Positions 13,706-54,153 of a stretch of DNA of 64,000 bases are shown here, in pieces. Location of the stretch: contig JBMFSH010000011.1 in NCBI GenBank assembly GCA_049967655.1, positions 13,781 through 77,780 of the forward strand. Direction: 5' to 3'. Within the stretch, counting starts at the first letter, position 1. Each line of letters begins with the position of its first letter. Source of the DNA: Acidobacteriota bacterium. Its GTDB lineage: Bacteria; Acidobacteriota; UBA4820; DSQY01. The position numbers were made by a program, and so were the translations under genes. The notes beneath the pieces are model-generated. The model was not told the DNA's origin. It worked only from the letters and a program-made list of their open reading frames with translations, and did no database searches.

Positions 13706-15358
13706 GTGGGCCCGGCCAGCCCCCGCACAACCGCCGCCGTCAATACGCAGTACGCCCGCCTTCCGCTGGCGTTCGAGGAGAACCGGGAGCAGACGGATGG
13801 TCACGTGCAGTTTCTCGCCAGGGGGGGGAACTACCTCCTCTTTCTCACGTCCGGCAAGGCGGTTCTTAAATTGGCCAGGCCGGAGGGCGGCGGGCCCTCC
13901 GACGGAAAGCCCGGTTGGGTTCCGGTGCCGCCGAAGATCGAGGTGCTGAAGATCGGCCTCTCGGGCGCCAACCCGAGGGCGAAGATCACGGGCGTCGGTG
14001 AGCTTCCTGGACGCACCGCCAGCTTCATCGGAAACGATCCCAGCAAGTGGCGGAGGGACATCCCCTCTTACGGCCGGGTCGTTTACGAAGATCTCTATCC
14101 CGGCATTGACCTGGCCTTCTATGGGAAGCAAGGGCAGATGGAGTTCGACTTCATCCTCAAGCCCGGCGCGAAGCCCGAGGCGGTGTCGCTGGACATTTCG
14201 GGGGCCGGCGGGCTCTCGATCGGCCCGGCGGGCGACTTGATCCTAAAGACTTCGGGTGGGACGCTCCAGTGGACGAGGCCGGCGGTCTACCAGGAGCTGG
14301 ACGGCCGGCGGACACCCGTGGAGGGGCGCTTCGTCCTGAAGGGAACGCGCGTGGGCATCGCCCTTGGCCCCTATGACCCCGCGAGGCCCGTCGTGGTGGA
14401 CCCGGTGCTGGCCTACTCCACCTACCTGGGGGGGAGCGGGAGCGACAGGACCTACAGCATCGCCCTGGATTCGACCGGAGCCATGTACGTGTGCGGGGTG
14501 ACCTCCTCCACCAACTTCCCCACGGCCTTCCCTCTGCAACCTAACAACCACGGCGCGCAGGACGCCTTCCTAGCCAAGCTCAGCGCCGTCCCGACCCTGA
14601 CGGCCACCGCATCGGCCACCCCCACGTCGGGGCAGGCGCCACTGGCCGTCAGCTTCACCGGCTCCGCCTCGGGAGGGACGGCGCCCTACACCTACGCATG
14701 GTCCTTTGGGGACAGCATCACCGGATCAGGCGCCGCCACCACCCACACCTATTCGTCGGCCGGCGTCTACCCCGTCACCCTCACGGTGACCGACTCCGCT
14801 TCCCTGGCCGTCACCGACAGCCACCTCGTGATTACGGTGGCGGCTCCCGCGGCGCTCACCGTGAACGCGACCGTCACGCCGCTCTCGGGCAATGCGCCGC
14901 TGGCCGTCACTTTCGCGGGTACGGCCTCGGGTGGGGTGCCGCCGTACGCCTACGCGTGGACCTTCGGAGACAGCACCAGCGGGGCGGGCGCCAGCATCAG
15001 CCACACCTACACGGCGAGCGGGACCTTTACCGTTCGCGCCACGGTAACCGATTCGGCCAGCGTGACGGCCTCGGCCGCCACCACCGTCCAGGCCATCAAC
15101 CCGCCCGCCATCAGCAGCGTCTCCAAGGCGGGCAACCCCTTCCGGCTTAAGATCTACGGCAGTAATTTTCACAGCAACTGCACGGTCAAGGTCAACGGGG
15201 CGTCCGTCCCCCTCTCCCAGTACAAGAGCCCCAGCCTGGTGATCGCCAAGAAGGGCGCCGCCCTCAAGGCGATGGTGCTCAAGGGGGTGACCGTCCAGAT
15301 CACCGTCACCAACAACGAGGATGGAGGCGTCTCCGCACCCTTCAGCTTCACCTGGTAG
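13706..15358 (+). CDS. SBBP-repeat/PKD-domain surface protein; N-terminus uncertain, possibly truncated
   Basis: LPLAFEEN, Y.DLYPGIDL, DPVLAYSTYLGGSG, one SBBP repeat, two PKD repeats (YAWSFGD, YAWTFGD), C-terminal Ig/TIG-like domain; no signal peptide visible. Confidence 0.75.
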   Translation: MGPASPRTTAAVNTQYARLPLAFEENREQTDGHVQFLARGGNYLLFLTSGKAVLKLARPEGGGPSDGKPGWVPVPPKIEVLKIGLSGANPRAKITGVGELPGRTASFIGNDPSKWRRDIPSYGRVVYEDLYPGIDLAFYGKQGQMEFDFILKPGAKPEAVSLDISGAGGLSIGPAGDLILKTSGGTLQWTRPAVYQELDGRRTPVEGRFVLKGTRVGIALGPYDPARPVVVDPVLAYSTYLGGSGSDRTYSIALDSTGAMYVCGVTSSTNFPTAFPLQPNNHGAQDAFLAKLSAVPTLTATASATPTSGQAPLAVSFTGSASGGTAPYTYAWSFGDSITGSGAATTHTYSSAGVYPVTLTVTDSASLAVTDSHLVITVAAPAALTVNATVTPLSGNAPLAVTFAGTASGGVPPYAYAWTFGDSTSGAGASISHTYTASGTFTVRATVTDSASVTASAATTVQAINPPAISSVSKAGNPFRLKIYGSNFHSNCTVKVNGASVPLSQYKSPSLVIAKKGAALKAMVLKGVTVQITVTNNEDGGVSAPFSFTW

Positions 15359-37509: not shown

Positions 37510-38853
37510 TCAGTGTAATGCCTGGATAAAATTGTGGATCTGCTGTTGAATTCCTGGGTCCTTGGCCATTCGCTCCTCCACCTTCCGAATGGAGTGAAGC
37601 ACCGTTGTATGATGCTTGCCGCCGAACTTGCGGCCGATCTCGGGAAGGGAGGCGTCGGTGAGTTCCTTGCATAGGTACATGGCCAGCTGCCGCGGCACGA
37701 CCACGTCGGCCTTATTGGTCTTGGCCTTCAGGTCCGCCAGCTTCATCTTGAAGGCGGCCGCCACGTGCTTCTGAATGGCCTCCACGGTGAGGGCGTGACC
37801 GTCCTCGTGAAAGAGGCTCTGAAAGGTCTCACGGGCGAGATCGAGGGTGATCGGCTTGCCCTTGAAGTTGGAGAAGGCAATCAGCCTGAGCAGGCACCCT
37901 TCCAACTCGCGGATGTTGCTCTTGATTCTGCTGGCGATGAAGAGGGCCACCTCCTCGGGGATGGCAATCTTGTGGGCCTCCGCCTTCTTGTACAGGATGG
38001 CCACCTTGGTTTCCAGCTCCGGGGGCTGGATGTCGGCGATCAGGCCCCATTCGAAGCGGGAGCGCAGCCGCTCCTCGATGCTCTGCAGGTCTCGCGGCGG
38101 GCAGTCGCTGGAGAGGACGATCTGCTTCTGCGCCTCGTGGAGAGCGTTGAACGTATGAAAGAGCTCCTCCTGGGTCCCGGCCTTGCCGGCCAGGAACTGC
38201 ACGTCATCCAACAGAAGGACGTCCACCTGCCGGTATCGTTCACGGAACTCCGGCTGCTGCCGGTGCGCGATGGAGCTGATCATCTCGTTCATGAACCGCT
38301 CGGTGGAGAGGTAGGAGATTCGGAGAGAGGGAAAGTGGGTGAGCAGCTCCTGGCCGATGGACTGCATGAGGTGGGTCTTGCCGAGCCCCACACCGCCGTA
38401 GATGTAAAGCGGATTGTAGGACTTGGAGGGAGTCTGGGCCACGGCCTGGCATGCGGCGAAGGCGAATCGGTTGGAGGGGCCGACGACGAAGGAGTCGAAC
38501 CTGTAGTTCGAATTGAGGCTGAACGGACGCCCCGCCGGGGCGCCGGTCTTGGGCCGCGTCTCGGACGGGAGAACGACTGGCGCGGAAAGAACCAGGTCCT
38601 GGGAGGGATCATCGGAGAGGTCCACCAGCTCCACGGTCACCTCTCCTAGCCCCAGCTCCTGGGCCACCTCAGAAAACAAACTGGAGTAGTGATTCTCGAT
38701 CCACTCCCTGAACAGGGGGTTGGGCACTTGGACGTACAGTCTGTGTCCGTCCATACGAAGGCACTTGAGGGGCTTGAACCAAGTGCTGAAGTTGGTCTCG
38801 GAAACCCTGCCTTTGACGCCGTTCAGCAGTTTGGTCCACGTGTTGGAGGACAT
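37510..38853 (-). CDS. dnaA: Chromosomal replication initiator DnaA
   Basis: FDSFVVG.SN, YNPLYIYGGVGLGKTHL, LLDDVQF, RLRSRFEWGL, NIRELEG, HTTV. Confidence 0.98.
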   Translation of the reverse strand: MSSNTWTKLLNGVKGRVSETNFSTWFKPLKCLRMDGHRLYVQVPNPLFREWIENHYSSLFSEVAQELGLGEVTVELVDLSDDPSQDLVLSAPVVLPSETRPKTGAPAGRPFSLNSNYRFDSFVVGPSNRFAFAACQAVAQTPSKSYNPLYIYGGVGLGKTHLMQSIGQELLTHFPSLRISYLSTERFMNEMISSIAHRQQPEFRERYRQVDVLLLDDVQFLAGKAGTQEELFHTFNALHEAQKQIVLSSDCPPRDLQSIEERLRSRFEWGLIADIQPPELETKVAILYKKAEAHKIAIPEEVALFIASRIKSNIRELEGCLLRLIAFSNFKGKPITLDLARETFQSLFHEDGHALTVEAIQKHVAAAFKMKLADLKAKTNKADVVVPRQLAMYLCKELTDASLPEIGRKFGGKHHTTVLHSIRKVEERMAKDPGIQQQIHNFIQALH

Positions 38854-38885
38854 GTTTTCACAGCCTTATGCACAGATGTGGAAAA
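38854..38885. promoter_or_regulatory. DnaA-box cluster abutting the dnaA start codon
   Basis: GTTTTCACA 38854-38862, TTATGCACA 38866-38874, TGTGGAAAA 38877-38885. Confidence 0.7.
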
Positions 38886-39135
38886 CTCCGCCGTGCTCTC
38901 TCCCGGGTCCCGAAGCGGGCGCGAAATCAGAACTCCCGTCCCGGGCCTGGTGCAAACCGGCCGTGAAGAGAGAGTTTTGCCCCTGGGATCGCGGCTGCGT
39001 TCGGAGCACTCCCTTCCCTGGACCCGGACGACCAGTACCATTTCTAGTATGCCCCCGGACCTCCCTCGAAGGGAAGTCCCCCTCCACCGTCGGGGGCGCC
39101 CCCTAAGCTTGGCTCTTTCGACAAGAAGACTTACG

Positions 39136-40803
39136 ATGAAAGCAGGGGCAGGGGAGAAGGCGGGGCCGTTCGCGGAAAGGCGGTGGTTCGTGGGGACGAA
39201 GCAGCAGGTGGGGAACAGCAAGGCCAGCAAGAGCGCAGCCGGAGGGAAGGCCCGGCCGGCTCCCGCCTTCCCGCTCCGCTGCGCGGCCGTGGATGTGGGC
39301 ACCAACGCCCTGCGGTACCTGGCCGTCGAATTCAGCGCCCCGGGTCAGTTTCGCGTCTTGGAGAATCTCCGTAACGCGGTGAGGCTGGGCCACGGAGTTT
39401 TCCTGAGCGGACGACTCGCGGAGGAGCAGGCGGCCGAGGCCTTGGAGGTCCTCAAAAGCTATCGAGAGCGCATGGATGCCCTATCCATCTCGCGCTACAG
39501 GGCCGTGGCCACCAGCGCCGTGAGAGAGAGCGCAAACGGAGCAGCCTTCCTAGCTCAGGTGAGGCAGGTCGCCAAGATCGACCTCGAGACCATCCACGGC
39601 TCCGAGGAGGCGAGGCTGGTTCACCGGGCCGTGAAGAGCCGAATCGACCTCGGGACCGCCTACTGGATGCTGGTGGACCTGGGCGGCGGCAGCGTGGAGG
39701 TCTCCCTCGTCGACGCCAGCGGCCTTCAGTGGAGCGAATCCCACACCATGGGCTCGGTTCGCTTGCTGGAGGAGCTCACGGGGAGCGCCCGGGACCGAGG
39801 GCGATTCCTGCGACTGCTCACGGAGTACGCGGGAACCCTGCGGGTGCGCTCCGGGCTGGAAGAGGTGCGGCCCTCGGGCTACATCGCCACAGGGGGGAAT
39901 ATCGAGACGCTTGCGGAGATGGCCACGGCGGTGCCGGACGCCGCCGGCGTCAGCCGACTCCCCGTGGAAGACCTGGCGAGGCTCATTCAGCGGCTCTCCT
40001 CCCTGAGCTACCGCGAGCGCGTGGAGAAGCTGGGCCTGCGAGAGGACCGGGCCGACGTGATCCTCCCCGCCGCCATCATCTACGAGCGCCTAGCTACCCT
40101 GGCTCAGGCCAGGGAGATCCTCGTGCCCTACGTGGGCGTCAAGGAGGGCATCGTGCTGGATCTTGCGGACGGGGCGTCGCCGCTCGGGGCGGGGCAGGTG
40201 CGGCAGGCGGAGCAGCAGGTGGCGAGGACCGCCGTGGCCCTCGGGCGCAAGTACCACTTCGACGAGCCCCACGCCCTCCACGTGGCGTCGCTCGCCCTCT
40301 CGCTCTTCGACCAGACGCTCGCGGTGCATGGCATGGGCGAGGAGGAGCGGCGGATCCTGCACGCCGCGGCGCTCCTGCACGACATCGGCTCCTTTGTCAG
40401 CTACACGCGGCACCACAAGCACTCGCTCTACCTGATCGCCCACTCCAACCTGGCCGGCTTCACGCCGAGGGAGACGCTCATGGCGGCCAACGTGGCCCGC
40501 TACCACCGGCGGAGCTTTCCCAAGCCCCAGCACGAGCCCTTCACGGCGCTGCAGAAGGACGACCGGGACAAGGTCTCGGCTCTGGCCGCCCTGCTGCGCC
40601 TGGCGGACGCCATGGACCGGGAACACCGGCAGAGGGTGGAGCGGATCAAGGTCAGCGTGAGCCGATGGGCCCTGAAGGTGGGGCTGGAGGGCCAGGGAGA
40701 CCTCCTGCTGGAGGCCTGGGCGCTGAAGAGGAAATCGGACCTGCTCCAGAAGGTCTTCGGGAGGCCCGTCGAGGTGGCGCGCCTTGAGAAGGGGGGGAAA
40801 TGA
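39136..40803 (+). CDS. ppx: Ppx/GppA exopolyphosphatase with HD domain (start uncertain)
   Basis: AVDVGTN, VRLG, ATSAVRE, GSEEARL, DLGGGSVE, RADVI, LLHDIG, HHKHS. Confidence 0.92.
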   Translation: MKAGAGEKAGPFAERRWFVGTKQQVGNSKASKSAAGGKARPAPAFPLRCAAVDVGTNALRYLAVEFSAPGQFRVLENLRNAVRLGHGVFLSGRLAEEQAAEALEVLKSYRERMDALSISRYRAVATSAVRESANGAAFLAQVRQVAKIDLETIHGSEEARLVHRAVKSRIDLGTAYWMLVDLGGGSVEVSLVDASGLQWSESHTMGSVRLLEELTGSARDRGRFLRLLTEYAGTLRVRSGLEEVRPSGYIATGGNIETLAEMATAVPDAAGVSRLPVEDLARLIQRLSSLSYRERVEKLGLREDRADVILPAAIIYERLATLAQAREILVPYVGVKEGIVLDLADGASPLGAGQVRQAEQQVARTAVALGRKYHFDEPHALHVASLALSLFDQTLAVHGMGEEERRILHAAALLHDIGSFVSYTRHHKHSLYLIAHSNLAGFTPRETLMAANVARYHRRSFPKPQHEPFTALQKDDRDKVSALAALLRLADAMDREHRQRVERIKVSVSRWALKVGLEGQGDLLLEAWALKRKSDLLQKVFGRPVEVARLEKGGK

Positions 40804-41486
40804 TGGACAGGGCGGGTGAACACCTCCCCGGCAAGCTCGTCGCCGTGGAGGGGCTGGACGGCTCGGGGAAATCCACGCAGGTCTACCTGCTCTTCCGCTG
40901 GCTTCAGAGCCGCGGCTGCCGGGTCTTTTTCACGGAGTGGAACTCCTCGCTGCTCGTGCGGGAGGCCACCCGCAAGGGGAAGCGGCGGCAACTTTTGACC
41001 CCCACGACCTTCAGTCTGATCCACGCCACCGATTTCGCCGACCGGTACGAGCGCCAGATCCTCCCCCTCCTGAGGGCGGGCTACATCGTGCTCTGCGACC
41101 GCTACATGTTCACCTCCTTCGCCAGGGATGCGGTGAGGGGGTGCGACCCCGCGTGGCTGCGGCGGATGTACGGCTTCGCCAGGGTTCCGGACATCACCTT
41201 CTTCTTCAGGCTCCCCCTCGAGGTGGCCCTGGGCCGCATCCTGGAGGGGCGGCCCAAGCTGAAGTACTTCGAGGCGGGCATGGACCTGGGCCTGAGCCCA
41301 GACATCACGGAGAGCTTCCGCCTCTTTCAGGGGCGGGTCCTCGAGCAGTACCTCGCCATGGCCGAGGAGTTCGGGTTCACCGTCCTGGACGCCACCCGGC
41401 CGGTCCACAGCCAGCAGCAGGTCGTGCGCCAGATCGTGAACCAGAAGCTGGACCTGGCCACCTTCCACAAGAGGTTCGTGCAATGA
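40800..41486 (+). CDS. Thymidylate-kinase-like protein A
   Basis: P-loop VEGLDGSGKST, VLCDRY, PDITF; overlaps the ppx stop. Confidence 0.88.
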   Translation: MMDRAGEHLPGKLVAVEGLDGSGKSTQVYLLFRWLQSRGCRVFFTEWNSSLLVREATRKGKRRQLLTPTTFSLIHATDFADRYERQILPLLRAGYIVLCDRYMFTSFARDAVRGCDPAWLRRMYGFARVPDITFFFRLPLEVALGRILEGRPKLKYFEAGMDLGLSPDITESFRLFQGRVLEQYLAMAEEFGFTVLDATRPVHSQQQVVRQIVNQKLDLATFHKRFVQ

Positions 41487-42196
41487 GCGCCAAACGGTGC
41501 TTCGGCAATGCCCCGGCGGGGGTGGACGTCTCCAAGCTCTCGGGCTCCCTGATCGTCATCGAGGGGCCCGACAGCTCGGGCCGTTCCACCCAGATCGCCC
41601 TCCTGACCGAGTGGCTGGAGCAGCAGGGCTACGCCGTGGAGCAGGTGGGCCTCAAGCGCTCCACGCTCGTGGGGCCGGAGCTGGAGCAGGCCAAGCAGGG
41701 CAACGTCCTGAGCCCCCGGACCCTCTCGCTCTTCTACGCCACCGATTTCTTCGACCAGCTCGAGAACCGCATCGTGCCCGCCCTGAGAGCCGGCTTCGTG
41801 GTGCTGGCGGACCGCTACATCTACACCCTGATGGCGAGGGACATCGCGCGAGGGGCCGAGCCCGAATGGGTCTCCTCCATCTACTCGCTCGCCCTGGTGC
41901 CGGACGCGGTCTTCTACCTCATGGTCTCGCTGCGCACGCTCGTGGAGCGGACCTTCCAGTCGCACGCCGACCTGGACTACTGGGAATCCGGGATGGACTG
42001 CGGCCTTTCGAGGGACTGGTTTCAGAGCTTCGTGAAGTACCAGCGCCGCATGCGCACGGAGTTCATCCGCATGCAGAAGCAGTACGGATTCGTGCCCATC
42101 AACGCCAACCGCAGCGTGATCACCGTTCAGAAGGACCTGAAGGCCCACATCCAGGAGGTTCTGGACAAGTTCGAAAAGCCCGTGTACCATGGGTGA
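41483..42196 (+). CDS. Thymidylate-kinase-like protein B (variant P-loop)
   Basis: IEGPDSSGRST, VLADRY, PDAVF; paralogue of the upstream gene; ATGA overlap. Confidence 0.88.
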   Translation: MSAKRCFGNAPAGVDVSKLSGSLIVIEGPDSSGRSTQIALLTEWLEQQGYAVEQVGLKRSTLVGPELEQAKQGNVLSPRTLSLFYATDFFDQLENRIVPALRAGFVVLADRYIYTLMARDIARGAEPEWVSSIYSLALVPDAVFYLMVSLRTLVERTFQSHADLDYWESGMDCGLSRDWFQSFVKYQRRMRTEFIRMQKQYGFVPINANRSVITVQKDLKAHIQEVLDKFEKPVYHG

Positions 42197-42626
42197 CATG
42201 ACTGAACCCGTCAGAGAATCCAAGCTGGGGAGCCGACCCGCTCCCGGGAAAAGCAAGGCCGCCGAGCCCGTCCCGAAGGGGAAGGCCAAGGCGGCGGGCG
42301 CGGCGCGCGTCTCGGCCGATGGCCGGCGAAAGAAGCTGGGCCTTGCCGTGGCCGAAGAGCTCCAGGCCACGAGGGGGATCCTGCGCGAGGCGGGCGAGGC
42401 CGTGCTGGTCCGCCTGGACGCCGAGCTGGCCGCCATGGCCTCCTACCTGAGGGGCGAGGAGCTGGAGGGGGAGCACCCCCGGCTTCCCTCGCCGCGCACG
42501 CTCGCCGCCATGGTGGAGGAGTGCCGGGCGCTCAAGGTGAAGCCCAAGAAGGGGCGCGTGAAGGACCTGGCCCGCATTGAGGCCCTGCTGAAGGCCCTCT
42601 CGGCCATGATGCCGCCCGAAGCCTGA
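42189..42626 (+). CDS. Hypothetical basic helical protein
   Basis: In-operon ORF overlapping the upstream stop; C-terminal LKVKPKKGRVKDLARIE. Confidence 0.7.
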   Translation: MGDMTEPVRESKLGSRPAPGKSKAAEPVPKGKAKAAGAARVSADGRRKKLGLAVAEELQATRGILREAGEAVLVRLDAELAAMASYLRGEELEGEHPRLPSPRTLAAMVEECRALKVKPKKGRVKDLARIEALLKALSAMMPPEA

Positions 42627-42654
42627 TGAGCCCGTCCGGCGGGAGGAGTGCGCC

Positions 42655-43380
42655 GTGAGGGTCGCTTTTCTCTCCGACGTCCACGCCAACCTGCCCGCCC
42701 TCTGCCGCGCACTGGAGTCCGCCCGGCGGAACGGCGCCGAGTTCCTCTTCTGCGCCGGCGACCTCGTGGGCGGAGGGCCCCATCCCACCGAGGTGGTCCG
42801 CCTCCTCATGGAGCGCGAGATCCCCTGCATCCTGGGCAACGTGGACCGCAAGGTGCTCTCCCTGGGGCGGGATCCCAAGCGGCTCCGCAGACGAATCCGC
42901 GAGGGCAAGGGGGCCGTGGCGGCCTGGGCGGCCCTCTCCCTCGGCGAGGCGGAGTGCGCCTGGCTTACCTCCCGGCCCGCGGAGCTGAGGCTGACCCTCG
43001 GCGGGACCGACGCGTGGATCGTCCACGGCAGCCCCCTATCGGATGAGGACTATCTCTATCCCAGCCTCACGACCAGGGCCCTGGGGCCGAGGCTCAAGGG
43101 TGAGCGGCCCGGCCTGCTCGTCTGCGGCCACACGCACATCCCCTTCGCTCGGGCCGTGGGGGCGGTACGCGTCGTCAATTGCGGATCCGTGGGGCGCCCC
43201 ATCGACGGCGACCCCAGGGGCTCCTACGCCCTCTGCGATTTCGGGGGTGGAAGACGGCTGCAGAGCCGCATCGTTCGCTTCACCTATCCCGTGGAGGCGC
43301 TCGTGGCCGACCTGGAGTCCCGGGACGTGCCCAAGAGCCACCCGGCTTTCTACCGGACGGGGAGGGGCCACGCCCTCTGA
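42655..43380 (+). CDS. Calcineurin-like metallophosphoesterase
   Basis: SDVHAN, GDLVG, GNVD, VHGSP, GHTH, NCGSVG.P. Confidence 0.9.
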   Translation: MRVAFLSDVHANLPALCRALESARRNGAEFLFCAGDLVGGGPHPTEVVRLLMEREIPCILGNVDRKVLSLGRDPKRLRRRIREGKGAVAAWAALSLGEAECAWLTSRPAELRLTLGGTDAWIVHGSPLSDEDYLYPSLTTRALGPRLKGERPGLLVCGHTHIPFARAVGAVRVVNCGSVGRPIDGDPRGSYALCDFGGGRRLQSRIVRFTYPVEALVADLESRDVPKSHPAFYRTGRGHAL

Positions 43381-43419
43381 CGGGCCTCGGCGCCGGGAGG
43401 GCGGGAAGGGAGGCGAGAG

Positions 43420-45030
43420 GTGGAGGGATCGGGGCGCTCCATTTCATTCCGCCTACCCGCCGCGCGGAGCCTGGCGGGGCTGTTGCGCGCCCTCAAGGGC
43501 GTGGGGTACGTCGCAGGCCCGGTGGGCCGGACCGCCTACCGCACCCTCTTCTTCGAAACCCAGGACGGGCGGCTCTTCCGTGCGGGGCTTCGCCTCGGCC
43601 TCGGCCTCCGGAAGGGGCGGCCCGTCTGGCGCCAGGAGGGGACGGGCGCCCCCTTGGAGACCCCGGCGCCGACGGCCCTCACCGCCGCGCTGGAGGGACG
43701 CGCCTGGCTGGAAGCCTCGGCGGCCGGATGCCCCGAGGCCGCGGCTTCGGCGGCGGGACCGCGTAGGCTTCTTCCCCTGGTGCGCTTGGCGGGCCGGCGC
43801 TCCGAGGCGGACCTGGCCTCGCCATCGGGGGCCGGGCTGGATGTGAGCCTGGACGTCTTCTGGGCGGCCTCTCCGGGCGAAGCACCGCGTCGGGAGGGGC
43901 CTCCCCTGCGCCTCCTGACCGTGCGCCTGTCGGAGGGGGAGCCGGCGGCGCTCCAACACGCGGCGGCCTTCCTCCGGGACCTGCTCCGCCTGGAGCCTTA
44001 CGAGGGGGACGCCTGCTCGGCGGGGCTTTTAGCCGTCGACCTCTCCCAGCCGGGGGCGCCGCTTCCGGCCCGGCTGGCGGTCCTTCCCACGGACCGCATG
44101 GCCGAGGCGGCGCGCAAGGTCGTGGAGCGGCAGGCGCTCTTGATGGAGAGGAATTCGGCCGGCACCCGTCTGGACCTGGATCCCGAGTACCTGCACGACC
44201 TTCGCGTGGCCACGCGGCGGCTGCGGGCGGCCCTCCGCCTCTTCGGCGCCGTGCTCGGCGTGCGCCGGGCCGAGGCCCTGCGCTGCGAGCTGCGATGGAT
44301 CGGCGGTCTTCTTGGGGGAGTGCGGGATCTGGATGTGCAGCTCCGCGACCTGGAGCCCTTCGGGGAGCGGCTGGGAGAGGCCGAGCGGGTGCTGGCCGTG
44401 CTCCGGACTGAGCTCCTGGTGCGGAGAGGCCCCGCGCTGGAGGCCCTCCGGTCGGCCCTGGCGAGCCGGCGCTACGCCTCGCTCCTACGGCGCCTGCTCG
44501 CCCTGGGGAGCTCGCCTGTCCCCAAGCGCCTCCCGGCCGGGGGTGCGCTTCCCGTCCTCGCGGCCGCCCCGCCCCTGATTCAACGGGCCGCCCGGCGCGT
44601 CTTTCGGGTGGGCCGCGCCGTGACGCCCCAGAGCCCGCCTCCGGAGCTACACCGGCTGCGCATCCTCTTCAAGCGCCTGCGCTACACCTGCGAGTTCTTC
44701 CGGGAGGCCTTCCCCGAGGTCCTGCCGGAGCTCATCGAGTCCATGGTCCGGTTCCAGGACTGCCTGGGGGAGCACCAGGACGCGGTGGTGGCCATGGCCC
44801 GCATCCAGGACTTGGCCCGCCAACTGGTGGCCCGGGGCCGCATGGCGCCGGAGGAGCTTCTGGACCTGGGCGGACTCATCCAGGTGCACCGCGAGGTGGC
44901 CCGCGACCGCAGGGCTCGCCTGGCGGGGCTCTGGAAGGGTTTCGACCGGCCCTCCGTGCGCCGGGCCCTGGCCGGCCTGGGCGCGCCGGCGCCGGAGGGC
45001 CGTGAAACAACCGGCCGCCCGATGGCGTAG
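43420..45030 (+). CDS. CHAD domain protein with degenerate CYTH-like N-terminus
   Basis: FFETQDGRL...GLRL; LHDLRVATRRLR, LGGVRDLDV, LHRLRI..KRLRY..E, QDCLGEHQD. Confidence 0.9.
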   Translation: MEGSGRSISFRLPAARSLAGLLRALKGVGYVAGPVGRTAYRTLFFETQDGRLFRAGLRLGLGLRKGRPVWRQEGTGAPLETPAPTALTAALEGRAWLEASAAGCPEAAASAAGPRRLLPLVRLAGRRSEADLASPSGAGLDVSLDVFWAASPGEAPRREGPPLRLLTVRLSEGEPAALQHAAAFLRDLLRLEPYEGDACSAGLLAVDLSQPGAPLPARLAVLPTDRMAEAARKVVERQALLMERNSAGTRLDLDPEYLHDLRVATRRLRAALRLFGAVLGVRRAEALRCELRWIGGLLGGVRDLDVQLRDLEPFGERLGEAERVLAVLRTELLVRRGPALEALRSALASRRYASLLRRLLALGSSPVPKRLPAGGALPVLAAAPPLIQRAARRVFRVGRAVTPQSPPPELHRLRILFKRLRYTCEFFREAFPEVLPELIESMVRFQDCLGEHQDAVVAMARIQDLARQLVARGRMAPEELLDLGGLIQVHREVARDRRARLAGLWKGFDRPSVRRALAGLGAPAPEGRETTGRPMA

Positions 45031-47749: not shown

Positions 47750-48538
47750 ATGGATTCGGCGACGCTCACCCTCTTCTCCTTCACGGCCCGGCAGATGACG
47801 CGCTCGGTCAAGGCCTGGCTCTTCGGCCTCATGGTGGCCGTGCCCTGGGGCGTGGTCCTGCTACTGAGGCTTCTCATCGCCCAGGGGGTGCCCGTGCCGA
47901 TGGGTGGAGTCACGCTCTACGGCATGCTCGTGCTCGGGTACGTGCTCGGCTTTTTCGTGCCGCTCTCGACGCTCTTTTTCGGGACGGCCCTCATCGCCGA
48001 CGAGGTGGAGGGCGGAACCCTGCCCTACCTCTTCGGCCGGCCCATCCGGCGCGAGAAGCTTTTCCTCGTCCGGTACGCGGCCATGACGGCCATCCTGCTG
48101 GCGGGAACGTGGGCCAGCGTCCTGGGCACCTACGTCCTGGCCATGACGAGCGGATCGCCCGCGGGAGAGCTGGGGACCTTGGGCGGCGACCTCTTCACCG
48201 TAGGCCTCGCCGTGGCGGTCTACGGGGCCCTCTTCTCCTTCCTCGGCATGGCCCTAAAGAAGCCCCTCTTCTGGGGGCTCCTCATCGGCTTCGGCTGGGA
48301 GAACCTGGTGGCGTGGCTGCCGGGCTTCCTCAAGCGCCTCACCCTGCTCTTCCACCTCCACACCCTGCTCCCCCACGCCTCGGGGCCCCAGGGCCTCCTC
48401 CAGCAGCTCCTGGCCTCCAGCGAGAGCCGCCTGGCGGCCCTGCTCTTCCTGCTCGTCTACGAGGCCCTCTTCCTGGCCCTAGGCTGCCTCCTCATCCGCC
48501 GCATGGAGGCCTCCGTTGGCGAGAGGGAAGAAGGGTAG
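47750..48538 (+). CDS. ABC-2 type permease
   Basis: About 6 TM segments, DEVEGGTLPYLFGRPI.R. Confidence 0.88.
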   Translation: MDSATLTLFSFTARQMTRSVKAWLFGLMVAVPWGVVLLLRLLIAQGVPVPMGGVTLYGMLVLGYVLGFFVPLSTLFFGTALIADEVEGGTLPYLFGRPIRREKLFLVRYAAMTAILLAGTWASVLGTYVLAMTSGSPAGELGTLGGDLFTVGLAVAVYGALFSFLGMALKKPLFWGLLIGFGWENLVAWLPGFLKRLTLLFHLHTLLPHASGPQGLLQQLLASSESRLAALLFLLVYEALFLALGCLLIRRMEASVGEREEG

Positions 48539-48539
48539 G
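48405..48539 (+). repeat. 135-bp direct repeat, left copy (attL-like; 3' end of permease)
   Basis: Matches 53265-53399 (offset 4860); 85-bp identical core 48431-48515. Confidence 0.95.
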
Positions 48540-48689
48540 GCCGGAGGAGGAAAAGAGCCGTCCGGCCCCGGGGCCCCGTCCGCCAGCTGGCTTCGGAAGA
48601 TACAATAGACATGGCTGGACATGCCTTTTCGGGAAAAGCCAAGAAAGACGGCCTCCCTTCCTTGCGGTTGTGGGTTTGCGGGCTGCCCC

Positions 48690-48720
48690 TTGAAAAAAAA
48701 AGGGGGGGGGGGCATATATT
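48690..48720 (+). promoter_or_regulatory. Sigma70-type promoter with homopolymer (A9-G11) spacer
   Basis: TTGAAA 48690-48695, 19-nt spacer containing G11 (48702-48712), TATATT 48715-48720. Confidence 0.65.
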
Positions 48721-48766
48721 TGCGCTAACCCCAGCGGGAAGGGCAGGAAAGAAAGGAGGGTGCTTC

Positions 48767-48973
48767 ATGAAAAAGCTGTTCACGGTTAGTGCTATTTTGG
48801 GAGCGTTGCTGTTGGTGACAGTTTTGGTCTTCGGTAGCCAGGCTCCCCCGCCCCCTATTATCTTGCCCCCGGGAGGCAATTGCGGGCCGGTTTATGGCTG
48901 CACTTTCAGTCGTGTGACCGGCTACTGCGAGGGTACCTCGGGGGCCTGCCAATGCATGGACTGTTACCCTTGA
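48767..48973 (+). CDS. Secreted 68-aa peptide with a 6-Cys C-terminal domain
   Basis: AAAGGAGG RBS; MKK-hydrophobic signal, Pro-rich linker, NCGPVYGCTFSRVTGYCEGTSGACQCMDCYP. Confidence 0.8.
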   Translation: MKKLFTVSAILGALLLVTVLVFGSQAPPPPIILPPGGNCGPVYGCTFSRVTGYCEGTSGACQCMDCYP

Positions 48974-49026
48974 TGTGAAGGATACCCCTGTCCCGCCGGC
49001 GGTTGATATGCGTGAGGAGGTGAGCG

Positions 49027-50100
49027 ATGAGAGGAAGGGGGCGGCACGGCGGTTTGGTGCTGCTTCGCTCGGTGACAATTCTCTGTTTAGGGCTCTTTGG
49101 TGGATCGCTGCCCATCGCGTCTGCTGCACCAAGGCTCCTTTCGGTTGAACCCCTTGTCCTACCCGGCCTGCCGAAGGCCGTGGAGGGGCTCTGCGCGGGC
49201 CCTCAAGGGCGCCTCTTCGTGCTGGACAGGGTGAACGGAGAGGTGCTCGTTTTCGATAAAGAGGGCCGAAAGATAGGCTCCTTCGGCAAGGGAAGGATAG
49301 TAGGCCCACGCTCCATCACGGCTGCCGGCTCAGAAGTCGCGGTTGTGGAGGGGAGAGGGTCCCTCCTTTTTTTCAATGGGCGAACCCTCTCTTACGAGAA
49401 GACGACAACCGGCCTCACCCGTTACTGCCCTGGCTTGGGGGCCGCGCTCACACCCAAAAGGATCGTCTATGGCGGCATGGGCTACGAAGGGGAGCGGCCC
49501 GAACGGGGGGAGACCTTCGACGCCCTGGTGCTCTTTTCGACCGACTGGGAGGGCCGGGATCTTCGCGTGTGCGCGCGCAGGAAGGTTTTGTGGGAGGAGG
49601 AGAAGGGCTTTCAAATCCTTGCAGGAAGTCATTTCTTTCCTTTACAGGGAGGGGGGATTGCGGTGGCTCGGGTCTTTCCACCCAAGATCTGGTTGCTCGA
49701 TTCGGAGGGCCGGGTGGTGAGGCAATCGCAGGGGGGAAACGAACCTCTGCCACGCGCTCCCTCGGAAGGGCGCCTTCCTCCCGATCAGGAGTGGGATGCC
49801 ATCTATTTCGGAACACCGCACGTGGAGGGTCTTTTCGCCGCCGGAGACCGCTTCGCTCTCATCGTCCGGGAACACACCCAAATGGGGCACGTGCTCTACC
49901 TTTCTTGGTATGACAAGGATCTTCGGCCTTACCAAAGAGAACCCCTCCGGCTCCCGGTCGTCCTGGGGAGTGACGATTTTGTACGCGGGACGGTTTCCTG
50001 GGGGAGCAACGAGATTCTTCTTCTCCTCGTTCGCCGGCAAGAAAGGCCCTGGGGCATCGGGATCTCACGGGTGTTTCGGCTCAAGTTCTCGCACGGATAG
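49027..50100 (+). CDS. Exported beta-propeller (NHL/6-bladed-like) protein
   Basis: GAGGAGGT RBS; signal peptide; GRLFVLDRVNGEVLVFDKEGRKIGSFG NHL-like blade, later IWLLDSEGRVV and WYDKDL. Confidence 0.7.
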   Translation: MRGRGRHGGLVLLRSVTILCLGLFGGSLPIASAAPRLLSVEPLVLPGLPKAVEGLCAGPQGRLFVLDRVNGEVLVFDKEGRKIGSFGKGRIVGPRSITAAGSEVAVVEGRGSLLFFNGRTLSYEKTTTGLTRYCPGLGAALTPKRIVYGGMGYEGERPERGETFDALVLFSTDWEGRDLRVCARRKVLWEEEKGFQILAGSHFFPLQGGGIAVARVFPPKIWLLDSEGRVVRQSQGGNEPLPRAPSEGRLPPDQEWDAIYFGTPHVEGLFAAGDRFALIVREHTQMGHVLYLSWYDKDLRPYQREPLRLPVVLGSDDFVRGTVSWGSNEILLLLVRRQERPWGIGISRVFRLKFSHG

Positions 50101-50114
50101 GGCTCGCAAAGACG

Positions 50115-50615
50115 ATGCGCCGAAACGGTCAATCGTTTTTCCTCGCCTTAGCGCTGGTCGTTTTTTGGGCTGGCTGCCGGGCGCCCTCCCCGGAGAACGC
50201 CTGGACGCGGTTGCAAAAGACGACACGCGACTCCAACTACCGCTACCTCGCGCTTCTGTTTGTCCCTGAAAAGGGGTGTACCTGCACCTACCTGGAAGCC
50301 TTCGCCGCCGCCCAAAAGGCCATCACGCAAAAGGGGATCTCATGCCGGTTAGTGCTGGTCATCCCGCCGGGTGGGCCGGCCGAAGCCCTGGCGGGGGAGG
50401 GCGTGCCAAGGGAAGCTCTCTATGAAGACCAGGGGCGAGCCGTGGCCGACGCCATCGGCGTGGATTCCGGCGATCTTCCCTACTTCGTCGTTCTGCCGGT
50501 TTCCAGCCCGGCTCGGCGGGTGATTGCCTACCGGCTCGCCGGGCCGGCTGGCGTCCAAAGCCAAACAGAGAACCTTCTAGACGTTCTCTTGTTCTTACCG
50601 GGAGGTCGAGTATGA
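50115..50615 (+). CDS. Lipoprotein, thioredoxin-fold-like
   Basis: Lipobox WAGC; LLFVPEKGCTC; YEDQGRAVADAIGV...LPYFVVL. Confidence 0.6.
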   Translation: MRRNGQSFFLALALVVFWAGCRAPSPENAWTRLQKTTRDSNYRYLALLFVPEKGCTCTYLEAFAAAQKAITQKGISCRLVLVIPPGGPAEALAGEGVPREALYEDQGRAVADAIGVDSGDLPYFVVLPVSSPARRVIAYRLAGPAGVQSQTENLLDVLLFLPGGRV

Positions 50616-53266
50616 GGCGGGCTTCGATGGTGCTGCTCGTGGCCGGATGGATAGGGTGGAGTTTGGTCTGGGCCCAGGAGGGGCGCACTTGGCGGCTCGG
50701 GTTCGAACCGGCCGCCGAACCGGTGGCTGTGCAATTGAAGGATCTCGCGGGCAAGATCAGCGATGCGCCGTGCCTTCTGTGGCAGGAGGGAGGCGCACCC
50801 GTGAAGGTCGAAAAAGGGACGCCGTATCCTGCCCGGCTTCCGGAGGGGCGGCCTCTTCGGGTTGAGGCCTTGACCCCCGAGGGCAAGCGTGTGCCCGGGA
50901 TCCACCTCAGCTGGCGCGTCGAGGGTTGGCCCCTCTTGCCAGCCCCTGCTGGGGAGCAAGCCACGGACGCCAAGGGCCGCCTCACCTTCTCTTTGCCGGC
51001 AGGCCTTCCCGTCACGCTGTGGGCCAACGAGGAGCCGTGGGCCGCGAGCCCCGTGGCCGTCGCCGGCGACACTCCGGAGGCTTCCGTAATAGTGGTTCCG
51101 GCGCCGCCCGGGGAGATCCGCATTCTCGATTCCTCGGGCCGCTGCGTTGCTGGTGCGAGGCTGGTGACGGCGCAGCAGGCATTGTTGCGCGATCCAATCG
51201 CCACGACCCGCCTTCCTTCCTTCGGTCTGAAGGAGGAGATTTCGAACCCATTCGGCCGGGTGGTCTTCGCTTCGCCCCCAGGGGCCCTGTCGGGATGGGT
51301 TCTGGCCGAGGGATACCGCCTGCACGAATGGGCTGGAGCCGCGGAACGAACCGTGCGCCTGGAGCCGGCCGGCCCCGTGCGCCTCGCGATTCATTTGGAG
51401 AAGGGAGCGCCTTCTCCGGACCACGTCACCATTCGCCTGACGGCCAACCTCCCCCCTATACCCTGGGTGCCGCTCGTTCTCGAAAAGGAGACCTCGTCCC
51501 TGGATCTGCCGGTATTTCCCTTCACCGATTCATGCGCGCTGGAGGTGGTAGCGGAGGGCTTCGAAGCGGCATGGATCTCCCCCGCCGAACTCTCCGGAAA
51601 GGCAAAGGTGGAGGTCATGCTGAAACGGGGGCTTCGCCTTGGGGGGGTGGTCCTTTCTCCAAGCGGGGCACCCGTGGAGAGGGCTATCGTGCTCGTGGAT
51701 GGGCTTGCCAGGCCGGCCCCTGGTCGAGCCAGAACCGACAAAAGGGGGCGTTTTCTGTTGGCGTCCCTGCCCCGTGGCCGTTGGAGCCTCCACGTTCAGG
51801 CCGCGAACTATAAGGAGGCGAACTTCGGCCCCTTTTCATCCATGGACCGGAACGACTTGAAGTTGGTGCTCAAGAGGGGCGCCCTTATCCGGGGGTTCAT
51901 CTCCGGCTACGGACCACAGCCGGGCGGCGAGGACTGCCGCGTTCTCCTGAAAAAGGCCTCATCAAGCACACCGGGGCCCACCCAGCAGGAGGTTCCCCTC
52001 TCCGAAGACGGCTCCTTCGAAATAGGAGGCTTGGAACCAGGGGCCTACCACCTGCTGGCCTGGAGTCCTGGGAGAGGGCGCGCTTCGGAGGAGTTCACCC
52101 TCCAGGAGAACGAGGAGCGCGATCTTGGTGTAATCCGCTTCGACACCTCGCCTCATGTGAGCGGCCGTCTGGAGAGGGCCAGCGGTGAGACATGGGAAGG
52201 GGGCGGGGAGGTTGTTCTTGAACGAATGCTCCATGCCGCGGATGCCACCACCTCCTATCCGCCGAGGAACCTAGTCGCCTCCGCTGACGATGACGGCACC
52301 TTCGCCTTCACCGGTGTTCCGGAGGGAAGCTACGTTCTGAAGGCACGATGCGGCGGCCTTTCCAGTAGACCCAAGAGGGTCCAGGTAGAGGATCGGGACG
52401 CAGACGCCGGCGTCCTCATTCTGGAGCGCAGCGGTAACGTCTCCGGGCGCCTCCTTTCGAGGAGGGGCACTCATTTCGCTGGGTGGAGGCTTTTTCTGAA
52501 GATCCAGAGCTATGAACCCACGGCTCCTCTGGCGGTCGCGGATGCCGATGGCACCTTCGCCTTTGGAGCGGTGGCGCCGGGGCCGTACCGGCTGGAGGCC
52601 TATGGACCTACCGATCTCTCACCCCGCTGTAGCCGCTCCCTGGATGTGGAGGAGGGCCAGCAGGTAGATCTCCAATGGCCTATCGAAGGGGTTTCGGTGC
52701 GGGTTTTTCTCCAGGTTGGTGGACGACCGGCGGCGAGAGCGGTGGTAGTGCTCGATCCCGCCTCTTCAGGTTTTGAGGAAGGAGGATTGCTTCAGATCTC
52801 TGGCGGAGGGGGGTCGCAGCTTTTTGGTCTGCCCGCACAGCCCAGTCGCGGCCAAGCCGACGACGCCGGATTTGCAGCCATTGAAAATGCGGTGCCAGGG
52901 CTGGCTCAAGCCAGCCTCTATTGGGAGGGAGGCGAATACCACGCCTCCGTTGCGGTTCCTGACGACGAAGGGGTCGTACCCACGTGGAATTTTATGGGTG
53001 TCCCTGTCCAAGGCTGGGTTCTTGATCACACAAGCGCTCCTGTGCCCGGGGCCCTTGTCACCTATGGGTACGCCGAGCTCGGAACGAACCCCGCCAACAG
53101 TGTGGTGGCTGATTCCACGGGGGCCTTTCTTCTGCCGAGAATGGGCGCTGGCTCCCTCGTCCTCGTCGCACGCGACGCGGCGGGACATCAAGGCAAAACG
53201 GCGCTGCAGGTCGCGGATCAACCGCTCAGCGGGGTGAAAATCGTCCTCGCTGCCGGCACACCCTAG
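50612..53266 (+). CDS. Large exported protein with carboxypeptidase-regulatory-like beta-sandwich repeats
   Basis: Signal peptide; repeated G.V....G.PV..A.V...TD..G.F....L.PG.Y.L; GGAGGT RBS. Confidence 0.8.
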   Translation: MRRASMVLLVAGWIGWSLVWAQEGRTWRLGFEPAAEPVAVQLKDLAGKISDAPCLLWQEGGAPVKVEKGTPYPARLPEGRPLRVEALTPEGKRVPGIHLSWRVEGWPLLPAPAGEQATDAKGRLTFSLPAGLPVTLWANEEPWAASPVAVAGDTPEASVIVVPAPPGEIRILDSSGRCVAGARLVTAQQALLRDPIATTRLPSFGLKEEISNPFGRVVFASPPGALSGWVLAEGYRLHEWAGAAERTVRLEPAGPVRLAIHLEKGAPSPDHVTIRLTANLPPIPWVPLVLEKETSSLDLPVFPFTDSCALEVVAEGFEAAWISPAELSGKAKVEVMLKRGLRLGGVVLSPSGAPVERAIVLVDGLARPAPGRARTDKRGRFLLASLPRGRWSLHVQAANYKEANFGPFSSMDRNDLKLVLKRGALIRGFISGYGPQPGGEDCRVLLKKASSSTPGPTQQEVPLSEDGSFEIGGLEPGAYHLLAWSPGRGRASEEFTLQENEERDLGVIRFDTSPHVSGRLERASGETWEGGGEVVLERMLHAADATTSYPPRNLVASADDDGTFAFTGVPEGSYVLKARCGGLSSRPKRVQVEDRDADAGVLILERSGNVSGRLLSRRGTHFAGWRLFLKIQSYEPTAPLAVADADGTFAFGAVAPGPYRLEAYGPTDLSPRCSRSLDVEEGQQVDLQWPIEGVSVRVFLQVGGRPAARAVVVLDPASSGFEEGGLLQISGGGGSQLFGLPAQPSRGQADDAGFAAIENAVPGLAQASLYWEGGEYHASVAVPDDEGVVPTWNFMGVPVQGWVLDHTSAPVPGALVTYGYAELGTNPANSVVADSTGAFLLPRMGAGSLVLVARDAAGHQGKTALQVADQPLSGVKIVLAAGTP

Positions 53267-53399
53267 CTCCTGGCCTCCAGCGAAAGTCGGCTGGCGGCCC
53301 TGCTCTTCCTGCTCGTCTACGAGGCCCTCTTCCTGGCCCTAGGCTGCCTCCTCATCCGCCGCATGGAGGCCTCCGCCGCCGAGCGCGAGGAGGGGTAGG
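53265..53399 (+). repeat. 135-bp direct repeat, right copy (attR-like; orphan permease tail)
   Basis: Encodes LLASSESRLAALLFLLVYEALFLALGCLLIRRMEASAAEREEG* with no upstream gene body. Confidence 0.95.
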
Positions 53400-53421
53400 C
53401 CCGCCTGCTCTCCCCCATAGC

Positions 53422-53449
53422 GAGGGGGCGGGCTGAAGCCCGCCCCCTC
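53422..53449. terminator. Hairpin terminator
   Basis: GAGGGGGCGGGCT-ga-AGCCCGCCCCCTC between convergent units. Confidence 0.7.
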
Positions 53450-53535: not shown

Positions 53536-54153
53536 TCAGAACCGCGCCGCCATTTTGCGGGCCTTGCCCTCCTCGTAGCGGGCGGCCAGCGCCGGCCAGT
53601 TCACGTTCTCGAAGAAGGCCTTGATGTAGTCGGGCCGTCCGCCGGCGCCCCAGTCCACCATGTAGGCGTGCTCGAAGACGTCCATGATGAAAACGGGGAT
53701 GAAGCCTGCGATGTTGCCGTCCTCGTGGAGCTGGATGAAGTGGTTGGTGAGCCCGCCGGTGGCGGGGTCCAGGTAGCAGATGGCCCAGCCCACGGAGCGG
53801 CTGGCGCCGCACTTGACGAAGTCCTCCTTCCAGGCCTCGAAGGAGCCGTACTGCTCGGCCAGGGCCTTGCGCAGGGGCGAATCGGCGGGGAGCTCGGGGG
53901 CGCCCGCCTTCAGGTTGCCGAAGTAGTACTCGTGCAGGACCATGCCGTTGACCTCAAAGCCAAAGCGGCGGCGGCGGTCGGCGTAGAGGGCGGTGCCCCC
54001 CTTGCCCTCCTTCCGCATCGCCTCCAGCTCGGAGAGCAGGGCGTTGGTGTTGGCCACGTAGCCCTCGTAGAGCTTCCAGTGCTGGGCGATCTGGTTCTCC
54101 GAGATCCCCTTGAGGTTGGCCGGTTTTAGGTGGACTTTCACGTCGTATGTCAT
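53536..54153 (-). CDS. Fe/Mn superoxide dismutase family protein
   Basis: H..LY.GYV, LHEYYF, YGSFEAWK, GWA, MDVFEHAYMVD, NVNW. Confidence 0.9.
   Translation of the reverse strand: MTYDVKVHLKPANLKGISENQIAQHWKLYEGYVANTNALLSELEAMRKEGKGGTALYADRRRRFGFEVNGMVLHEYYFGNLKAGAPELPADSPLRKALAEQYGSFEAWKEDFVKCGASRSVGWAICYLDPATGGLTNHFIQLHEDGNIAGFIPVFIMDVFEHAYMVDWGAGGRPDYIKAFFENVNWPALAARYEEGKARKMAARF

Follow-up and report, generated by a model that had tools for sequence, protein, structure and literature searches.

We analyzed a 64,000-nucleotide stretch of DNA from an Acidobacteriota bacterium (GTDB lineage Bacteria; Acidobacteriota; UBA4820; DSQY01), spanning positions 13,781 to 77,780 of contig JBMFSH010000011.1 in GenBank assembly GCA_049967655.1 and referred to here as the window. 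The host genome (G000) comprises 3.14 Mb in 147 contigs, and the window lies on the contig labeled C11. The subject of the analysis is a four-gene cassette located between the 3′ end of an ABC permease gene and a partial second copy of that gene end, together with the route by which it may have reached this position. The locus contains the following features, given in window coordinates:

47750..48538, + strand: ABC-2 type permease, 262 aa (Pfam ABC2_membrane_4/2)
48405..48538, + strand: left repeat copy, the tail of the working permease gene, host-type at 48424/48427 and foreign-type at 48516-48532
48431..48515, + strand: 85-bp core, identical in both copies, the putative crossover or conversion tract
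48767..48973, + strand: 68-aa precursor peptide with a hydrophobic, signal-like N-terminus, a proline-rich linker and a six-cysteine core
49027..50100, + strand: 357-aa exported beta-propeller, NHL-like (weak Pfam matches to NHL and DUF5128, both below cut-off)
50115..50615, + strand: 166-aa predicted lipoprotein with a thioredoxin-like fold (CxC at C55 and C57, and Pro122, invariant in a 12-homologue alignment)
50612..53266, + strand: 884-aa exported protein with CarboxypepD_reg beta-sandwich repeats (Pfam PF13620, E 4e-41, five stretches)
53265..53398, + strand: right repeat copy, the orphan permease tail, with GAA AGT foreign-type at 53284/53287 and the last eight codons and stop host-type
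53422..53449, no strand assigned: GC-rich host hairpin, which trails the permease stop in empty alleles
53536..54153, - strand: Fe/Mn superoxide dismutase (SOD; Pfam Sod_Fe_C), the usual neighbor 3′ of the permease

The permease is the last gene of an operon with two ATPases and two permeases, and orthologues are present in 22 of the 24 other genomes of the family. Its tail and the orphan form a direct repeat of 139 nt (48405-48543 and 53265-53403, comprising the 135-bp tail to the permease end), 92% identical and with a spacing of 4860, while the next-best two-copy repeat families within 44-58 kb reach at most 53 nt at less than 80% identity. Between their start and the stop codon the copies have ten differences, three to the left of the identical core (48424, 48427 and 48430) and seven to its right, all within 48516-48532; the core itself occupies 48431-48515 and 53291-53375. 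The target permease gene is intact and its partial copy stands beyond the cassette. There the right repeat begins within the 884-aa gene's stop codon, a TAG (53264-53266) that occupies the position of a permease CAG, and the join has two bases in common with the permease. None of the four cassette genes matched an integrase, resolvase or transposase in Pfam, NCBIfam or PHROGs. Five tyrosine recombinases (PF00589) score above the Pfam cut-off in the genome, all of them outside this contig, and a genome search for PF00239 resolvases found none. The repeat with its identical core, the TAG at the permease CAG and the lack of integrase or transposase in the cassette had all been described in a first-pass annotation of this DNA made from its letters alone, and each was recovered here by repeat search, alignment of the copies and profile search. 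A self-comparison of the whole genome returned 55 same-contig direct repeats (at least 40 bp at 82% identity or more), 14 of which, besides the present one, were annotated; no gene-tail scar was found elsewhere in the genome among the annotated repeats listed, these being intergenic dispersed repeats.

The cassette differs from its surroundings in composition. G+C content at third codon positions (GC3) is 0.65 in the peptide gene, 0.68 in the propeller gene and 0.71 in both the lipoprotein and the repeat-protein genes, against 0.92-0.97 in the four adjoining ABC genes and 0.94 in the SOD gene, a step across the boundaries that the earlier annotation had anticipated. Single-copy sites, likewise anticipated, were found in relatives. 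The permease of the congeners G001 and G002 ends in SAAEREEG (SVGEREEG in the window), with hairpin and SOD gene directly after, and a third empty allele, on metagenome contig L113, has the same end ahead of the hairpin. A DNA search found no cassette in G001-G003, with both flanks present in the first two; in the third of these congeners (98% complete), neither the permease nor its neighborhood was matched. Across the family, the SOD gene lies at most 1.5 kb from the permease in 16 of 22 loci, and of 19 loci with more flanking sequence, not independent because they overlap the other examined genomes, none carries a cassette homologue or a tail copy longer than 34 bp. Four mine-drainage runs from one study (X1-X4) yielded contigs joining 48544 to 53422 in two cases (X1 and X4, at depths of 20 and 12) and, in all four, cassette pieces 92-98% identical at depth 2-6, which shows that empty and cassette-bearing states are both present among related organisms, without linking the pieces. 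A fifth run (X5) covers the flanks and leaves the cassette almost uncovered. The earlier suggestion that other cassettes might occupy the same site held only in part: no different cassette was found there, and an orthologous one without an orphan tail was found in G017, a genome of another genus. Separately, the permease-SOD gap of L130, also from another genus, measures 3.1 kb and contains no homologue of the window cassette; a different insert possibly lies there.

Read against the empty alleles, the two tail copies are mosaic. To the right of the core, no base separates the orphan from the empty alleles, and 7 of 27 bases in the working gene depart from them; because the background in the body of the permease gene is 25 differences in 645 bases (3.9%), which gives a binomial P of ~6e-5 for seven in 27 bp, the end of the working permease, its last eight codons, is foreign. 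Left of the core the working copy and all empty alleles have GAG and AGC, and the orphan has GAA and AGT, two synonymous, adjacent changes to codons that are rare in host genes (GAA in 21 of 233 Glu codons, AGT in 2 of 169 Ser codons) and commoner in cassette genes (33/93 and 9/93, respectively). Uninterrupted identity over the 85 bp of the core has a probability of ~1e-3 at the overall divergence, which points to a crossover or conversion tract inside the core, not at the repeat edge. The codons had been written correctly in the first-pass annotation for both copies and both sides of the core, and its statement that the permease was kept intact is borne out, the insertion having brought in a foreign replacement for the last eight codons, as the seven differences in 27 bp show. 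Its description of the left copy as host-like GAG AGC CGC applies to the first two codons, which match the empty alleles, and not to the third, for which these have CGG; the reciprocal donor/host pattern accordingly fits at nine of the ten sites, all seven to the right and two of three to the left, the donor allele itself not having been found.

We consider it likely that the four-gene cassette entered this genome as a circularized fragment of a relative's DNA, made up of a permease tail and the cassette, by one homologous crossover into the host tail. The donor would have been a close relative already carrying the cassette behind the same permease, and the fragment would have started 135 bp ahead of the permease stop and finished with the stop codon that closes the 884-aa gene. 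Its ends would have been joined at a 2-bp overlap (AG) into a circle, RecA would have mediated a crossover within the 85-bp core, and the same repeats would permit the cassette to loop out again. The GAA and AGT of the orphan agree with a circle bringing a tail of its own. Suitable donors, with the cassette in this position, do exist, since the G017 orthologue ends 69 bp before the same SOD gene, without an orphan, and pairs with the window cassette in a tree of 17 repeat proteins in which the four cassettes found at the uvrB gene of other genomes also form one clade (both 100/100); this orthologous cassette is presumably linked to the G017 permease across contig gaps. The cassette is complete, as its 884-aa gene ends in register with that orthologue. 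The genes recA, comEC and dprA are present in the genome and are widespread (10-14 of 14 control genomes). On our analysis, the single-crossover route accounts for every feature shown without a special enzyme, and we read the cassette site as a scar and not as a mobile element in its own right. The Campbell-type integration of a circle with a diverged tail, as first put forward, thus stands with respect to the insertion, the foreign end and the GAA/AGT pair and fails at one site left of the core, whereas the companion idea of an element mobile in its own right, or moved by a trans-acting recombinase, found no support: no conserved junction motif was seen, and eight of the twelve related cassettes with both flanks assembled have no repeat.

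Minimal mobile elements are known to exchange by flanking homology, and the prophage e14 carries its own integrase. The rearrangement route is already known, and the cargo is the new part. In E. coli lacZ, linear DNA with homology at one end was mostly trimmed, recircularized and integrated by a RecA-dependent single crossover, giving target duplications of 109-950 bp in 56 of 60 clones (PMC3240628). This insertion-duplication (PMC3240628) resembles the window case in needing no integrase and in leaving a partial target copy beside the insert, which measures 135 bp in the window and 525 bp at uvrB in G017 and so falls within the E. coli range; it differs in that the window case is natural, with a diverged donor tail and mosaic copies. 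The microcin H47 island of E. coli is also small and integrase-less, with ~145-bp imperfect repeats, peptide cargo and empty sites in other strains, but its repeats are 77% identical with perfect blocks of at most 20 bp, recombine without RecA and are not described as a gene tail in the text available, and the window cargo is unrelated (PMC5426353). Unconventional circularizable structures share the absent recombinase and the long direct repeats around cargo, yet they are defined by a detected circle, of which no sign was listed here, and are known for resistance genes in streptococci (PMC8401462); the window repeats are also shorter. Minimal mobile elements of Neisseria place accessory cassettes at set positions, flanked by conserved genes, which recalls the exchange without duplication at the C6 cassette described below; at the permease site, by contrast, no alternative cassette was found, only empty or orthologous states, and a duplication is present (PMC1797815). 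Prophage e14 in icd/icdC likewise supplies a working gene end and leaves the original end on the far side, but it integrates site-specifically, and the window cassette has nothing phage-like (PMC13626634). A literature search for integrase-less islands with a gene 3′ end duplicated by single crossover, outside of which lay subscription journals and supplements, gave no match.

Several observations weigh against entry as a tail-bearing circle. The donor share of the orphan amounts to two bases only, and the Arg codon at 48430 is CGG in the orphan and in the three full-length empty alleles and CGC in the left copy, a reversal that makes one of the three left-of-core sites depend on a separate host change. 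A donor permease ending in VGEREEG was found in none of the 22 family loci, and a metagenome pattern search in which both tails were allowed gave one match, of the host type. Among the matches listed for contigs of the five runs, which come from related organisms, there was no circle junction and no contig across either cassette junction, although contigs cannot show absence. The empty alleles come from other species (~95% identical) or strains, and excision through the core gives the same sequence, so that a site that never had the cassette is indistinguishable from one that lost it. Near-identical cassettes in runs X1-X4 (92-98%) and 96% identical proteins (P0002 and P0157) on a 2,085-bp contig indicate that other strains have the cassette too and that the genus may have held it for a long time. 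Finally, a candidate reciprocal mosaic at uvrB in G013 was rejected, G013 and G005 being sisters, and the orphan there is not a clean mosaic.

Entry without a free circle strikes us as unlikely. A linear donor could have entered through homology at one of its ends and an illegitimate joint at the second (homology-facilitated illegitimate recombination, HFIR); in another form, two crossovers would have brought in the cassette from a donor whose tail was already duplicated. Under HFIR the orphan would be wholly host DNA, with GAA AGT as later changes or a short donor patch. The route is a described one (PMC3240628), transformation is reported to leave short clustered donor patches (PMC13344027), and the uvrB orphan of G017, which opens with ~157 identical bases, requires no donor share. 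However, two chance synonymous changes 3 bp apart in a dead copy, with none elsewhere in the 135 bp, are improbable (~1% by our own estimate), and in E. coli HFIR was accompanied by deletions and made up only 4 of 60 events (PMC3240628). The two-crossover form leads to the same product as the circle and moves the origin of the duplication one step back.

There is little to recommend the view that the cassette is what remains of an island integrated at a specific site, as e14 is in icd, and that it lost its integrase or relies on a host recombinase acting in trans. Its outward layout is that of icd-e14-icdC (PMC13626634), the five tyrosine recombinases elsewhere in the genome could be enlisted, and the integrase-less H47 island excises without RecA between imperfect repeats of 148 and 144 bp (PMC5426353). 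Nevertheless, the cassette contains no recombinase or phage remnant and has no cognate integrase at its ends, no mobility gene lies beside the related cassettes whose open reading frames (ORFs) were examined, the orphans at a single gene, uvrB, vary in length (53-525 bp) and start, and the exchange point falls in mid-repeat and not at its 5′ edge, with 8 of 12 cassettes lacking a repeat altogether. Slightly harder still to sustain is an ancestral cassette that was lost in relatives, the repeat having arisen by in-place duplication, gene conversion and drift. The G017 orthologue, which occupies this site in another genus and is 41-61% identical compared with 67% for the permease, and the close cassette copies in other populations agree with it, but it is the orphan that has the host hairpin and equals the empty alleles right of the core, and it is the working gene that has the odd end. 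Drift would hit the dead copy first, which disfavors this history, and the SOD gene trails the permease without a cassette in 16 of 22 family loci. An assembly artefact, in which the core would have served to fuse two strains, or a separate circle with a chromosome lacking the cassette, is very improbable: the 147-contig assembly and the mixed empty and cassette-bearing populations in related samples would allow for it, but 85 bp is below the usual length of short reads, three other assemblies show this layout at uvrB, and a merged circle would itself show that a tail-bearing circle exists.

Single-crossover entry of a circle, our preferred account, can be set against the other members of the cassette family. 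A propeller profile was searched against 401 phylum genomes, with five candidates scored per genome, and at E<=1e-22 modules were found in 10 of 25 family genomes and in none of the 376 others; the window genome holds two further cassettes (C6 and C27). Twelve cassettes had both flanks assembled, and a flanking repeat above shuffled controls was found in four, the window cassette and three at the 3′ end of uvrB; the eight without one speak against a dedicated mobile element. At uvrB, the orphan tail is present in all three genomes with both flanks assembled (525 bp at 98.7% in G017, 70 bp at 88.6% in G013 and 53 bp at 86.8% in G009). These orphans begin at three different places and have no crossover point in common, and the one in G017, with its ~157 identical opening bases, needs no donor share. 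G005 has a cassette at uvrB where its contig ends, and G021, the sister of G009, has an empty uvrB site whose tail is closer to the G009 orphan than to the working G009 tail. The C6 cassette (L076:7087-12033) follows another pattern: it replaces a spacer of 60-70 bp, with both neighboring gene ends altered and no duplication, as would be expected of a two-flank exchange, and its site is empty in G001-G003. Its neighbors are convergent genes that, from their sequences, we take to be TonB-C-like and heme-synthase-like. A third cassette clade adjoins different genes in different genomes, and the 11 cassettes located neither at uvrB nor at the permease had no neighbors in common at E<1e-15, so not every clade is bound to one site. 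The modules, then, travel by homology with their neighbors, with an orphan tail as one possible result.

Two further observations concern the uvrB locus. Two stacked peptide-propeller-lipoprotein modules, with an internal repeat of 168 bp at 83% identity, lie within the 525-bp uvrB tail duplication of G017 (L091:2577-10059, contig C60), and the first lipoprotein there appears disrupted. In L085, L086, L088 and L091 the repeat-protein gene and uvrB converge, their stop codons overlapping by 4-10 bases.

The cargo begins with the 68-aa peptide, which has no match in Pfam, NCBIfam or PHROG and whose predicted mature part comprises approximately residues 27-68. Its homologues include one in G017, 58% identical and with all six cysteines, and one that is 96% identical (P0157); in the ESM Atlas the peptide, queried without its first Met as also in two of the profile searches, scores 0.78, which is a lead only. 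Peptides of other modules have unrelated cores with two or more cysteines and mostly a proline at the end. For the 357-aa propeller, the predicted model has a mean confidence (pLDDT) of 88.9 and its top Foldseek match is the Brat NHL domain (E 3e-11, 13% identity). A search of 50% clusters returned mostly multi-repeat NHL proteins and a few dozen single-domain matches without context, and none of 148 pattern matches to the propeller in metagenome contigs was confirmed as a relative; the same holds for 79 pattern matches to the 884-aa protein in genome contigs. The 166-aa protein (model pLDDT 87.4) matches peroxiredoxin and ResA in Foldseek with modest scores (E 6e-4 to 1e-3, template modeling score ~0.5), its nearest ESM Atlas clusters are unnamed (0.92-0.93), an AhpC/TSA cluster follows at 0.90, and 11 of 12 homologues have a lipoprotein-type cysteine; some related modules are without the CxC lipoprotein. 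In the literature, again with subscription journals and supplements outside the search, no module combining a propeller, a peptide and NVEALA was apparent among the papers listed, judged by title or opening of the abstract, none with carboxypeptidase-regulatory repeats, a beta-propeller and a cysteine-rich peptide was found for Acidobacteriota, and the peptide cassette family appears to be undescribed.

Upstream of the peptide gene lies one more feature of the cassette:

48690..48720, + strand: putative promoter, TTGAAA, A9 (48693-48701), G11 (48702-48712) and TATATT, with 19-nt spacing

Homopolymer runs of this kind are scarce, with six runs of at least 11 G and four of at least 9 A in the 3.14-Mb genome. 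Three of the six long G runs sit in such promoter spacers, the two others of these preceding short peptide genes, and, as read by eye, 8 of 12 peptide leaders contain a run of at least seven. A sigma-70 consensus scan of 48500-49050 with 16-18 nt spacing found no site. From its sequence, the promoter is probably phase-variable. Elsewhere in the genome, a TTGACA-G16-TAATCT promoter on C47 (from 11934 onward) is followed by a 74-aa precursor with a KKLVLSKETI leader, a double glycine and a six-cysteine core, presumably a phase-variable precursor of a ribosomally synthesized and post-translationally modified peptide, and a TTGACA-G15 promoter on C2 (from 131630 onward) is followed by a ribosome-binding site and a 25-codon hydrophobic ORF. 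Cassette contigs L051, L077, L079, L085 and L089 start or end near the peptide promoter, as if homopolymer runs break assemblies.

The cargo may be a phase-variable system that exports and folds a disulfide peptide, most likely for antagonism or signaling. The chances are about even, in our judgment, for a specific scheme in which, after export, the CxC lipoprotein would fold the peptide oxidatively and the propeller and the repeat protein would bind or display it, with expression switched by slippage in the A and G runs of the promoter spacer, as would suit an antagonism or signaling peptide. A broader scheme is conceivable and, on balance, doubtful. The modules would constitute an undescribed, family-wide, phase-variable system of secreted disulfide peptides, with gene-tail-bracketed modules circulating between species as recombinase-free circles, each tied to the end of one housekeeping gene, so that strains swap and stack peptide types at fixed positions such as the permease and uvrB; the propeller would then act as receptor or immunity protein, the CxC protein as oxidase and the repeat protein as surface scaffold.

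The locus provides a clean natural example, with empty alleles, of accessory genes entering a genome by a known route without a mobility gene. At a second locus, uvrB, the event has recurred, and the copies there differ in age. Island finders based on integrases miss inserts of this kind. The cargo may matter more than the rearrangement. In this family of uncultured Acidobacteriota, the conserved peptide module, with its highly variable cysteine-rich cores and homopolymer-spaced promoters, would offer secreted disulfide peptides of a new origin, and at 68 aa the precursor lends itself to synthesis and testing.

Two minor observations were made outside the cassette. Just upstream of the ABC operon, at 38689-45030 of the window, lies a polyphosphate-type cluster with a Ppx-like gene, two kinase-like genes, a phosphoesterase and CHAD. 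Clusters of short direct repeats, spaced ~2 kb apart around low-GC genes, are present elsewhere in the window genome at C31:5600-19300 and C64:4200-8400.

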